The position numbers and the translations under genes were made by a program. Below are positions 22,834 through 38,836 of a stretch of DNA of 64,000 bases, piece by piece; the stretch's first letter is position 1, and the number at the start of each line of letters is the position of its first letter. Source of the DNA: Flavobacteriales bacterium (GTDB lineage Bacteria > Bacteroidota > Bacteroidia > Flavobacteriales > UBA7312); NCBI GenBank assembly GCA_016779995.1, contig JADHMO010000001.1:213308-277307 (forward strand), in the 5' to 3' direction. Below the pieces are notes generated by a model. The model was not told where the DNA came from and did no database searches. It saw nothing but the letters and a program-made list of their open reading frames with translations.

Positions 22834-23043
22834 CTATTTCTTTTTAAGATACATTGTTTTAAGTACCACTCGTGTGCCATTCACTTTACAATCAACTTCG
22901 TTAGCATCATCTGTCAAACGGATGTTTTTGACTTTAGTGCCCTTTTTTATGACTAAAGGAGAACCTTTGACGTCAAGAGTTTTAATAACAATGACTGAGT
23001 CACCATTAGATAAAGAATTACCATTACAATCATTTACATCCAT
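22834..23043 (-). CDS. PhnA/YjdM C-terminal domain-only protein
   Basis: DCNGNSLSNGDSVIVIKTLDVKGS...KGTKVKNIRL...LKK. Confidence 0.8.
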   Translation of the reverse strand: MDVNDCNGNSLSNGDSVIVIKTLDVKGSPLVIKKGTKVKNIRLTDDANEVDCKVNGTRVVLKTMYLKKK

Positions 23044-23135
23044 AATTTAATCTTTGAAACAAATGTAACTAAAGTCATTGGCTAAACTGAAAAAAATATC
23101 TAATTTTAAATCGTAATTTTTAAATCCCTTAAACC

Positions 23136-23360
23136 TTGAAAATAATAAAGTATATCAACTTTTTAATGATAGTTGCGTTTGTTATTCTAATTCTTTTAAA
23201 AATACTTTCAGTTTTAGAATTGGGAATAAAAAAAGATACTATAATAAATCCCGATCAATCATTTCTAGTAGAAATTTGTAGTGATAATAAACTAGAAATA
23301 GGCATAGTAGCTATACTACTGCTAATAGTCTTATCTGTTTATCAAATACTAAAAAAATAA
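23136..23360 (+). CDS. Hypothetical 2-TM small protein
   Basis: 74-aa ORF (TTG start) with two hydrophobic segments. No family recognised. Confidence 0.5.
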   Translation: MKIIKYINFLMIVAFVILILLKILSVLELGIKKDTIINPDQSFLVEICSDNKLEIGIVAILLLIVLSVYQILKK

Positions 23361-23366
23361 ATAATC

Positions 23367-23564
23367 TTATTCATTAGATTGCTTATCGCTAGGTAGAACT
23401 GGGATAAATGATTTTTTTATTTTCTGACCACAACTAATGCAGTTTATAAGAATTGAACGAGGCTCGTCTTGGTAATAGTACCTACTAGAAAATGAAGATT
23501 CATCTTTTACTACTTTTCTCTTAAACCTACAAGAACAAAAACCTTGTTTTCTTACTATTTTCAT
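23367..23564 (-). CDS. Hypothetical basic protein with CxC and CxxC (possible zinc ribbon)
   Basis: 65-aa ATG ORF with FCSC and NCISCG. It fills an otherwise empty gap. Confidence 0.5.
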   Translation of the reverse strand: MKIVRKQGFCSCRFKRKVVKDESSFSSRYYYQDEPRSILINCISCGQKIKKSFIPVLPSDKQSNE

Positions 23565-23580
23565 AAATGATGTATAGTAA

Positions 23581-23701
23581 GGGGGGATTTTGTGCGTCTA
23601 AACACGAGAAAACAACCAAAGGCTCTTAACCCACCCCCCCTAATTAAAGGAAAATAAGGTTAAGAGAAAAATCATAAAGTTTGGTTGAATTGTGTTTAGA
23701 C
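23581..23701 (-). ncRNA. Putative structured RNA or leader (rod-like, three nested helices) containing an 11-codon ORF
   Basis: Perfect complementary pairs 23596-23605/23692-23701 (10 bp), 23613-23620/23680-23687 (8 bp) and 23623-23631/23658-23666 (9 bp). A -7-like TATATTAG lies just upstream on the minus strand. Confidence 0.6.
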
Positions 23702-23746
23702 TTCGCTAATATAAGTTAAAAAAGACAACTCTATTAGTGAAAAAAT

Positions 23747-38101: not shown

Positions 38102-38770
38102 ATGCAATTATCTACTGACATTTTTTCATTTTTTAGCAAATTAGAAGAAAACAATAACCGCGAGTGGTTTGAGCCAAACAAAGCCGAATTTAAAGCTTTG
38201 GAGAAATCTGTCAAGCAGTTTGGCGAGACTCTAAAAGACCAACTCAATACCCACGATAGCGTAGACGGTTTTAAGCTTTTTCGCATCTACCGCGATGTGC
38301 GCTTTTCCAAAAATAAAACACCCTACAAAACCCATTTTGGACTTAACTGGCACCGAAGCAAACCCGAGTTAAGAGGAGGCTACTACCTACACCTCAGCCC
38401 CAATGATATTTTCTTAGCCTGTGGCTTTTGGGATCCTAGCCCAGCAGATCTCCAACGCATCCGCCAAGAATTAGCCGTAGATGGCGATGAGTACCGCCAA
38501 CTGATAAACAAAGCCAACTTTAAAACCATTTGGGGTGAGCTTCACGGCGATGCCGTAAAAACCGCTCCCAAAGGCTTTGCTAAAGACCACCCACACATAG
38601 ACCTATTGCGTTTTAAGCAACACCTCTTTAGTGTACGCTACAGCCAAAGTCAAGCTACTGCACCCGACTTTTTGCAGCGTCTAAACACCGACCTAAAGGC
38701 TGTACGCCCATTTTTAGATTATATGAGTAGTGTGCTAACCAGCAATAGCAATGGGGAGTCTTTGCTCTAA
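38102..38770 (+). CDS. DUF2461 (TIGR02453) family protein
   Basis: NNNREWF, FRIYRDVRFSKNKTPYK, KTAPKGF, HIDLLR. Confidence 0.93.
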   Translation: MQLSTDIFSFFSKLEENNNREWFEPNKAEFKALEKSVKQFGETLKDQLNTHDSVDGFKLFRIYRDVRFSKNKTPYKTHFGLNWHRSKPELRGGYYLHLSPNDIFLACGFWDPSPADLQRIRQELAVDGDEYRQLINKANFKTIWGELHGDAVKTAPKGFAKDHPHIDLLRFKQHLFSVRYSQSQATAPDFLQRLNTDLKAVRPFLDYMSSVLTSNSNGESLL

Positions 38771-38836
38771 GGAATAAGTGTTTTTGTGGTACAAGAAGAT
38801 GCTCGCGCTAGCGGGGGGTATTAAGATTTAAGCTTG

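Follow-up and report, generated by a model that had tools for sequence, protein, structure and literature searches.

A 64-kb stretch of a Flavobacteriales contig (GenBank JADHMO010000001.1 of assembly GCA_016779995.1, positions 213,308 to 277,307; 64,000 nucleotides (nt) in all, hereafter the window, whose first letter is position 1) carries, between nqrF and a gene for a small cysteine-rich protein, a long rod-shaped inverted repeat, followed by a C-run and by a second hairpin that encloses the start codon of the small gene. A first-pass annotation, made from the letters alone, had singled out the rod as an RNA of about 120 nt with an embedded open reading frame (ORF) of 11 codons and a switchable pairing between its apical G-run and the C-run. 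In the order in which a minus-strand transcript would read them, the features of the region are as follows.

25105-23801, minus strand: nqrF, the upstream neighbour of the element.
23783-23747, minus strand: intrinsic terminator of the nqr operon, a 17-bp stem and a T-run; upstream boundary of the unit.
23706-23724, minus strand: promoter-like block, a T-run and then TTATATT(AG); every lineage keeps TTTTTA..TATATT unchanged or nearly unchanged, and the flanks vary.
23713-23706, minus strand: TATATTAG, the -7-like part of this block.
23596-23701, minus strand: the rod hairpin (HP1), 106 nt, with outer, middle and inner helices, a G-U-rich apical extension and a large 5'-sided asymmetric internal loop.
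23692-23701, minus strand: outer helix, 5' arm GUCUAAACAC, paired with 23596-23605; nine of the ten pairs are invariant.
23680-23687, minus strand: middle helix, 5' arm CAACCAAA, paired with 23613-23620; the least constrained helix.
23675-23640, minus strand: 11-codon ORF, ATG to TAG (MIFLLTLFSFN), a chance ORF outside the proposed mechanism.
23657-23666, minus strand: inner helix, 5' arm CUCUUAACCU, paired with 23623-23632.
23633-23641, minus strand: apical UAG and G-run (AGGGGGGGU), which the rod pairs with a pyrimidine tract at 23647-23655 and which could be the partner of the C-run.
23623-23632, minus strand: inner helix, 3' arm GGGUUAAGAG, invariant in all copies.
23613-23620, minus strand: middle helix, 3' arm UUUGGUUG.
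23596-23605, minus strand: outer helix, 3' arm GUGUUUAGAC.
23581-23586, minus strand: C-run CCCCCC, 9 nt past the rod, conserved jointly with the UUAC that follows.
23551-23581, minus strand: start-codon hairpin (HP2), CUUACUAU/AUAGUAAG, whose 15-nt loop holds the AUG (23564-23562); -7.5 kcal/mol, z = -5.7.
23367-23564, minus strand: gene for a basic protein of 65 amino acids (aa), rich in cysteine (CxC...CxxC), the gene that the leader would serve; its ORF is conserved in all lineages.

The helices, the short ORF, TATATTAG and the C-run all lie where the annotation had placed them, the outer helix being GTCTAAACAC (23596-23605) with GTGTTTAGAC (23692-23701), the middle helix CAACCAAA (23613-23620) with TTTGGTTG (23680-23687) and the inner helix CTCTTAACC (23623-23631) with GGTTAAGAG (23658-23666). 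Folding of a 141-nt stretch yielded -41.1 kcal/mol on the minus strand (z = -4.1, with 1 of 200 shuffled sequences equally good) and -38.6 kcal/mol on the plus strand (z = -3.7). Only the minus strand adds to its apex an extension of nine pairs, rich in G-U (UUUUCCU/GGGGGGG) and worth -9.3 kcal/mol; the annotation had preferred this strand for its apical UUUUCCU extension, and the more stable fold bears it out. A covariance model of the element, run on the window itself, gave the minus strand 150.7 bits and the plus strand 23.2 bits. The G-run of the RNA, a C7 on the plus strand, is the sole G or C homopolymer of at least seven in the window, which has a G+C content of 35.6% and just six G or C runs of at least six. 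Similarity scans and a filter-free scan with the covariance model found no second copy of the hairpin in the window. An exact GTCTAAACAC near 38679 was considered as a second element and rejected: it lies inside a coding gene, and a G6 run at 38813 falls in the short gap after that gene.

NqrF served as an anchor on GTDB species genomes to locate relatives, and the element was found in uncultured marine Flavobacteriales as 14 distinct copies (the window and 13 others) in four lineages: W (the window, L081-83 and L093), M (L087/89), N (L090-92) and H (L003, L004, L084, L085 and L088). L003 and L004 were reached by similarity, seven loci via the small protein and five contigs via one exact-pattern scan of metagenomes. 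All 14 copies stand directly upstream of the same small cysteine-rich gene and on its strand; their next neighbour on the upstream side differs, being nqrF in W, M and N and hemN-like in H. There is one copy per related locus, always at the same site, and an nhmmer profile run over 92 sources, some 820 kb of related sequence, found no further copies away from it. The spacer from terminator to hairpin measures about 45 nt, and past the terminator the one motif that is conserved is the T-run-TTATATT block, which precedes the rod by 4-19 nt; the H lineage has an additional TTTG 18 nt upstream of it. The annotation had read TATATTAG as -7-like and had placed the transcription start at the 5' end of the outer helix, just after the nqr terminator. 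The block is indeed conserved and partly matches the Bacteroidetes -7 consensus; as a promoter it would put the 5' end some 4-8 nt further on, where the hairpin has its base. No promoter-like site facing the element was found on the plus strand.

Comparison between lineages shows how strongly the element is constrained. At four-fold degenerate sites of nqrF the lineages are 47-59% identical, and synonymous sites of the small gene are saturated (proportion of synonymous differences, pS, 0.66-0.76); neutral sites are, by these measures, near saturation. Mean pairwise identity among the four lineages is nevertheless 100% in both outer arms and the inner 3' arm, 90% in the inner 5' arm, 89% in the G-run, 88% in the middle 3' arm and 95% in the C-run with its UUAC, as against 48% in the 5' internal loop, 39% in the apical loop and 46% in the stretch up to the ATG. 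With neutral sites near saturation, arms at 88-100% and loops at 39-48% mean that the paired parts and both tracts are under purifying selection; the two tracts that the annotation had proposed to pair, the G-run and the C-run, are both conserved. The UA ahead of the G-run is conserved within a variable loop, and the C-run has two variants, CUCCCC in L092 (compatible with G-U pairing) and CCCGCC in L083. Paired cells in the alignment amount to 93.6%, compared to 38-51% when the partners are slid. Coding was rejected as the source of the conservation of the 3' half, where a 21-aa plus-strand ORF and a 30-aa minus-strand ORF are broken by stops in the H lineage. Judged by these comparisons, the hairpin is real and under purifying selection, and is more than a chance palindrome.

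Several observations bear on whether the conserved entity is an RNA, and on which strand. In 11 of 12 copies the sense strand folds more stably than its antisense counterpart. Where a one-sided helix change preserves a standard pair, this pair is G-U in the sense RNA and would read A-C on the opposite strand: C to U opposite G in L082 (middle helix), in L083 and in L084/L088 (inner helix), and A to G opposite U in L090/L091 (inner helix). In L087 the middle helix has an altered 5' arm that still finds 8 bp of pairing with the unaltered 3' arm, in a new register. The fold preference, the G-U changes and this re-registration favour an RNA read from the strand of the gene. The further check that the annotation had proposed, to collect homologues and look for covariation, succeeded as to homologues and brought no two-sided compensatory change in the main helices; the sequences are few and too similar to one another, and covariation neither proves nor disproves the RNA helix.

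The annotation had overlooked that the ATG downstream of the C-run opens a conserved small protein gene, and that this ATG lies within a second conserved hairpin. The protein is 60-65 aa long across the lineages and keeps four cysteines (CxC or CxxC ... CxxC) and a basic composition; the ratio of nonsynonymous to synonymous substitution rates (dN/dS) is 0.09-0.34 in the close, unsaturated comparisons, and by this signature of selection the ORF is a real, conserved protein gene. Pfam and NCBIfam scans of the 65-aa protein returned no family. AlphaFold2 modelled it as all-beta (predicted local distance difference test score, pLDDT, 71), and a Foldseek search of the PDB with the model returned no fold match. 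It is probably zinc-binding. The start-codon hairpin HP2 occurs in four of four lineages, with z from -3.7 to -5.7 and a stability of -6 to -12 kcal/mol. Its stem is CUUACUAU/AUAGUAAG in W and N and has 7 bp in M; in H it is an 11-bp stem, CUUACUUUUUU/GAAAGAGUAAG, U-rich and with G-U pairs, around a UUG start. The 3' arm of the H stem reaches two codons deeper into the gene compared to W, so that the pairing is kept and its position in the reading frame has moved. The first base of HP2 is the last C of the C-run, which the two thus share. The UUG of the H lineage (L088 1487-1485; L003 6315-6317) lies in the HP2 loop and aligns to the AUG of the other lineages. A stretch of 24 nt in the 65-aa coding region, 23506-23529, has 79% complementarity with the rod's inner 5' arm (23655-23678) and was considered as a competitor of the 3' arm; it is similar in W and absent in L087, and we set the complementarity aside as probably coincidental.

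Two copies hint at how rod and gene fare together. L083 (3001-3195; 2860-2996) is the most damaged copy, with seven broken rod pairs, a mismatch in HP2, an altered G-run and an altered C-run, and its small protein is without the first cysteine (Cys10 to Tyr). In L093, where the rod stands beside a deletion-fused gene, three pairs are broken, the middle helix has two mismatches, and the hairpin is retained. This joint decay is anecdotal evidence that leader and gene may be functionally coupled. The G to U change in the G-run of L083 and the C to G change in its C-run would form a U-G pair in one register; as covariation they were discounted, the copy being otherwise degenerate.

The switch between G7 and C6 that the annotation had proposed was evaluated by its energetics. 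A nested G-run:C-run fold, when forced, is 12.7-21.2 kcal/mol worse than the rod, with an ensemble pair probability below 1e-6, and as a nested switch at equilibrium the proposal was rejected on energy. What stays plausible of it is a loop-to-tail pseudoknot. The UAG7:C6UUA duplex would have nine pairs worth -15 to -18 kcal/mol, set against the cost of opening the apical G-U extension (+9 to +11 kcal/mol) and HP2 (+6 to +10 kcal/mol); such a pseudoknot would be roughly isoenergetic with the rod and would open the start-codon hairpin. Counts of G-run:C-run pairs on the MAFFT alignment discriminate poorly, homopolymers pairing almost equally when slid and the C-run of the H lineage being one column off. 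The 5'-sided asymmetric internal loop, 12-18 nt long, is conserved in form and not in sequence, and is a candidate hinge for the bending of the rod that the pseudoknot would need.

Taken together, these observations lead us to consider it reasonably probable, if well short of certain, that the element is a cis-acting leader RNA that acts on the translation and/or the stability of the mRNA for the small cysteine-rich protein. In 14 of 14 copies it lies on the gene strand between the predicted promoter and the start codon, as a structured 5' leader would, and its structure is conserved under selection; it most likely represents an unclassified family of a familiar kind, that of structured translational or stability leaders, in a few related lineages of uncultured marine Flavobacteriales. 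The minus-strand transcript would start with a structured 5' leader of about 140 nt made up of (i) the 106-nt rod as its promoter-proximal part, which would start no more than a few nt from the predicted 5' end; (ii) the C6-UUAC tract; and (iii) the hairpin with the start codon in its loop. By default the rod would be closed, the apical G-run held by the U/C tract through G-U pairs, and HP2 formed, and translation would be low because initiation in this phylum does without Shine-Dalgarno pairing and is readily affected by structure at the start site. Flavobacteria begin translation without Shine-Dalgarno pairing and tune it through mRNA structure near the start (PMC6847099).

In the alternative state of this putative leader, the rod would bend at the conserved asymmetric loop and the apical UAG7 would capture C6UUA in the loop-to-tail pseudoknot, unzipping half of HP2 and allowing initiation. 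The near-invariant helix sequences suggest in addition a sequence-specific binder that may read them, for which the encoded basic protein is the obvious and simplest candidate, in an autoregulatory role. Direct observations in this picture are the structure and its conservation, the linkage to the gene, the preferred strand and the loss of the short ORF, whereas the start of transcription, the effect on translation, the pseudoknot and the trigger are inferred. That the leader forms a self-contained two-state translational switch, in which the G7 apex captures C6UUA and an effector sets the equilibrium, is a more specific proposition that we regard as improbable. If it were true, and the effector were the encoded zinc-ribbon-like protein, leader and protein would make up a new autoregulatory RNA-protein pair; were the effector a small ligand or a metal, the leader would be a new riboswitch class.

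A number of findings weigh against a cis-acting leader. The match to the Bacteroidetes -33/-7 consensus is partial in the W lineage, and the promoter, the 5' end and the co-transcription of the rod with the 65-aa gene are predictions from sequence. For the seven copies whose gene is intact, the energy balance of the pseudoknot comes to -1.4 to +2.9 kcal/mol, a figure that leaves loop entropy and geometry out of account. Two-sided compensatory changes are absent from the three main helices: among the 37 pairs counted, 18 are invariant, the lone two-sided change concerns the pair closing the apical loop, and the covariation term of RNAalifold is just -0.39. Mismatches without compensation are present in the middle helix of L003, L093 and L083, and in that of L087 if the original register is kept. 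The invariance of the arm sequences points to sequence-specific recognition, and a function at the level of DNA would account for it as well. The metagenome pattern held two of the blocks described here as conserved, and five copies were found through it; the outer 3' arm lies inside this pattern, yet it is identical in the W and H lineages, which were found independently. Finally, the whole module is dispensable, being cleanly absent in L002.

The history of this module helps to place its absence. Past the 65-aa ORF, the gene order in the window is a 74-aa ORF with two transmembrane segments (plus strand, convergent), yjdM (minus), DUF1801 (plus) and apbE. A further member of the module is as follows.

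22834-23043, minus strand: yjdM, 69 aa, PhnA C-terminal domain only (PF03831, E = 1.6e-27), the downstream member of the same variable module.

yjdM is syntenic in the W, N and H lineages and gone in M. The 74-aa ORF (23136-23360, plus strand), which has two hydrophobic segments and converges on the small cysteine-rich gene, occurs in W at 85-89% identity and weakly in N (42%), and is absent from H and M; it has no family match. In L001 and L002, whose NqrF is 99% identical, the hairpin is missing and the nqr terminator is the only part in common. L002 is without the whole block from hairpin to yjdM (hairpin, 65-aa gene, 74-aa ORF and yjdM; about 900 nt, window 22834-23739, corresponding to L002 5303-5370), and its nqrF terminator abuts the stop codon of DUF1801; L001 is arranged likewise up to the end of its contig. 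Since the module is present in each of the four deeper lineages, a deletion is the best explanation for its absence from L002, and the data as a whole are best read as an ancestral order nqrF-(hemN)-rod-zn-yjdM, zn being the small cysteine-rich gene, from which parts were presumably deleted. Further deletions struck the same block, leaving a hemN'-'zn fusion in L086 and zn'-yjdM fusions in L093. The L086 product (275-487, P0006) is a 70-aa in-frame fusion of about the first 44 residues of HemN to about the last 26 residues of the small cysteine protein, the hairpin and the interiors of both genes having been deleted.

The L093 product (308-505, P0008, also P0009) fuses, in frame, the N-terminal 26 residues of the small protein, with its CxC knuckle, to the YjdM/PhnA domain. 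Full-length YjdM is laid out as a zinc ribbon plus a PhnA domain, a layout that the fusion recreates; this hints at a possible joint action of the small protein and the domain-only YjdM. In the H lineage, a hemN-like radical-SAM gene lies between nqrF and the hairpin (L004 5411-6775; L003 5506-6129; L084 1463-2458; L088 2031-3025). L004 and L085 have the gene whole, L003 has a truncated form and L084 and L088 have frameshifts in it, a case of gene decay under way in streamlined genomes.

Conserved arms and a block that comes and goes among close relatives could also be the marks of an element that works as DNA, with the RNA fold as a by-product: a palindrome recognised either in duplex form, by its inverted repeats, or as a hairpin, extruded or single-stranded, or the exapted relic of a miniature inverted-repeat transposable element (MITE). 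Its recogniser could be a regulator, a recombinase (at a site like the attC of integrons) or a replication or transfer protein. We consider this unlikely. In its favour, both arms of the outer and inner helices are invariant in sequence, beyond what mere complementarity demands. Against it, the element is single-copy in the 64 kb of the window and in the ~820 kb of related loci, which, as far as this sequence goes, speaks against a MITE or other repeated palindrome; blastn against plasmid and phage collections found no similarity to it, and exact patterns (the block of G-run and inner arm; the outer-helix pair) had no match in viral contigs. The ends GTCTAAAC ... GTTTAGAC resemble the R'' and R' boxes of integrons, whose consensus is RYYYAAC/GTTRRRY, but miss it by an extra A/T; an attC-style pattern scan of the window returned three scattered pairs, the element not among them. 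There is no array, and the element stands 5' of its linked gene whereas an attC site stands 3' of the ORF of its cassette, and an attC site was rejected on these three counts. The one-sided substitutions and the apical G-U helix, moreover, are strand-specific, and the presence and absence of the small-gene module, several deletions included, is best read as loss from the ancestral order.

An independent small RNA, comprising the rod with or without the C-run (about 110-130 nt), ended by its own terminator or by processing and acting in trans through the G-run or the C-run, would fit the promoter-like block immediately upstream, the very stable rod with its exposed, conserved G-rich and C-rich tracts, and a conservation above that of the adjacent coding gene. 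It strikes us as distinctly improbable: we found no terminator-like site between the rod and the start codon (23596 to 23564, 32 nt) and no U-run after the rod, the rod is strictly tied to one gene and degrades where that gene is damaged (L083), and the conserved C-run abuts HP2 and shares a base with it, which ties the C-run to the downstream mRNA.

Two further models, both put forward by the first-pass annotation, retain next to no credibility. In one, the 11-aa ORF is translated and coupled to the fold (translation-coupled attenuation), or encodes a peptide akin to a type I toxin that fold-back silences; in the window it does have an ATG, buried in the rod, and a hydrophobic product. The ORF exists as annotated, but its significance did not survive comparison, its ATG or frame not being conserved in 13 of the 14 copies. 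The ATG is replaced by ATA (L081), by a T-run (L082) or by ACA in every other copy, indels shift the frame, and the loss extends from L081, L082, L083 and L093, which belong to the same lineage and have NqrF 99-100% identical over the parts compared, to M, N and H; the ORF region is the least conserved segment of the rod. As the ORF is not conserved and no terminator follows the hairpin, both attenuation and a toxin mRNA were rejected; there is likewise no terminator/antiterminator pair, and the plus strand shows no promoter-like site from which an antisense RNA would be read. The other model, a 6S-like RNA or another described family, has in its favour a rod of about 106 nt with internal loops, and founders on a distribution too narrow and a locus too dispensable, and on Rfam 15 (4227 models): nothing in the 64 kb reached a gathering score (and so no tRNA, riboswitch or ribosomal-protein leader was detected), the hairpin had only unrelated, far-below-gathering matches at E <= 10 (HSR-omega_1, Fungi_U3, MIR396 and several small-RNA models, with none to 6S, 6S-Flavo or Flavo-1), and an H-lineage copy had none at E <= 1. 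With no Rfam family matching it, the element is unclassified.

A cis-acting leader, if that is what the element is, would be an unclassified mRNA leader from genome-streamlined marine Flavobacteriales, where few cis-regulatory RNAs have been described, and a compact case of start-codon structure used as control in a phylum without Shine-Dalgarno pairing. It would also offer a first approach to the function of an orphan zinc-ribbon-like protein. The reach of the leader would be limited to a handful of closely related lineages, in close relatives of which the module has been deleted.

The element can finally be set beside known systems. With integron attC sites it has in common an imperfect palindrome of about 100 bp, ends containing AAC and GTT and a variable block of small genes, and it departs from them in consensus, in copy number, in the lack of an array, in the side of the gene on which it lies and in being one locus inherited by descent. 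6S-Flavo and Flavo-1 are likewise from Flavobacteriales, of comparable size and rod-like in fold; they are stand-alone housekeeping RNAs, whereas the element is a gene-linked leader that their covariance models do not match. Ribosomal-protein leaders are autoregulatory and are bound by the small basic protein that they precede. Akin to these, the element is a conserved structured leader just upstream of a small, basic protein resembling a nucleic-acid binder, and the two decay together in L083; the protein differs in having no recognisable family or fold match. Stem-loops at the very 5' end (the ompA 5' untranslated region (UTR), the Bacillus aprE leader) protect mRNAs from decay that depends on the 5' end, and the rod, judging from its spacing to TATATT, would begin about 0-5 nt from the predicted 5' end. 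A stem alone suffices in those stabilisers, as opposed to the 106 nt, invariant arms and conserved G- and C-runs found here. Inhibitory leader hairpins opened by alternative pairing are exemplified by the E. coli rpoS leader (opened by DsrA/RprA) and by the fourU and ROSE RNA thermometers. To these the element bears no sequence relationship; it has no Shine-Dalgarno sequence to sequester, and its competitor would act in cis, from the apex of a 106-nt rod. What it shares with them is its place in a 5' UTR, a start codon held in a modest hairpin and, upstream, a G-run that could compete for it.

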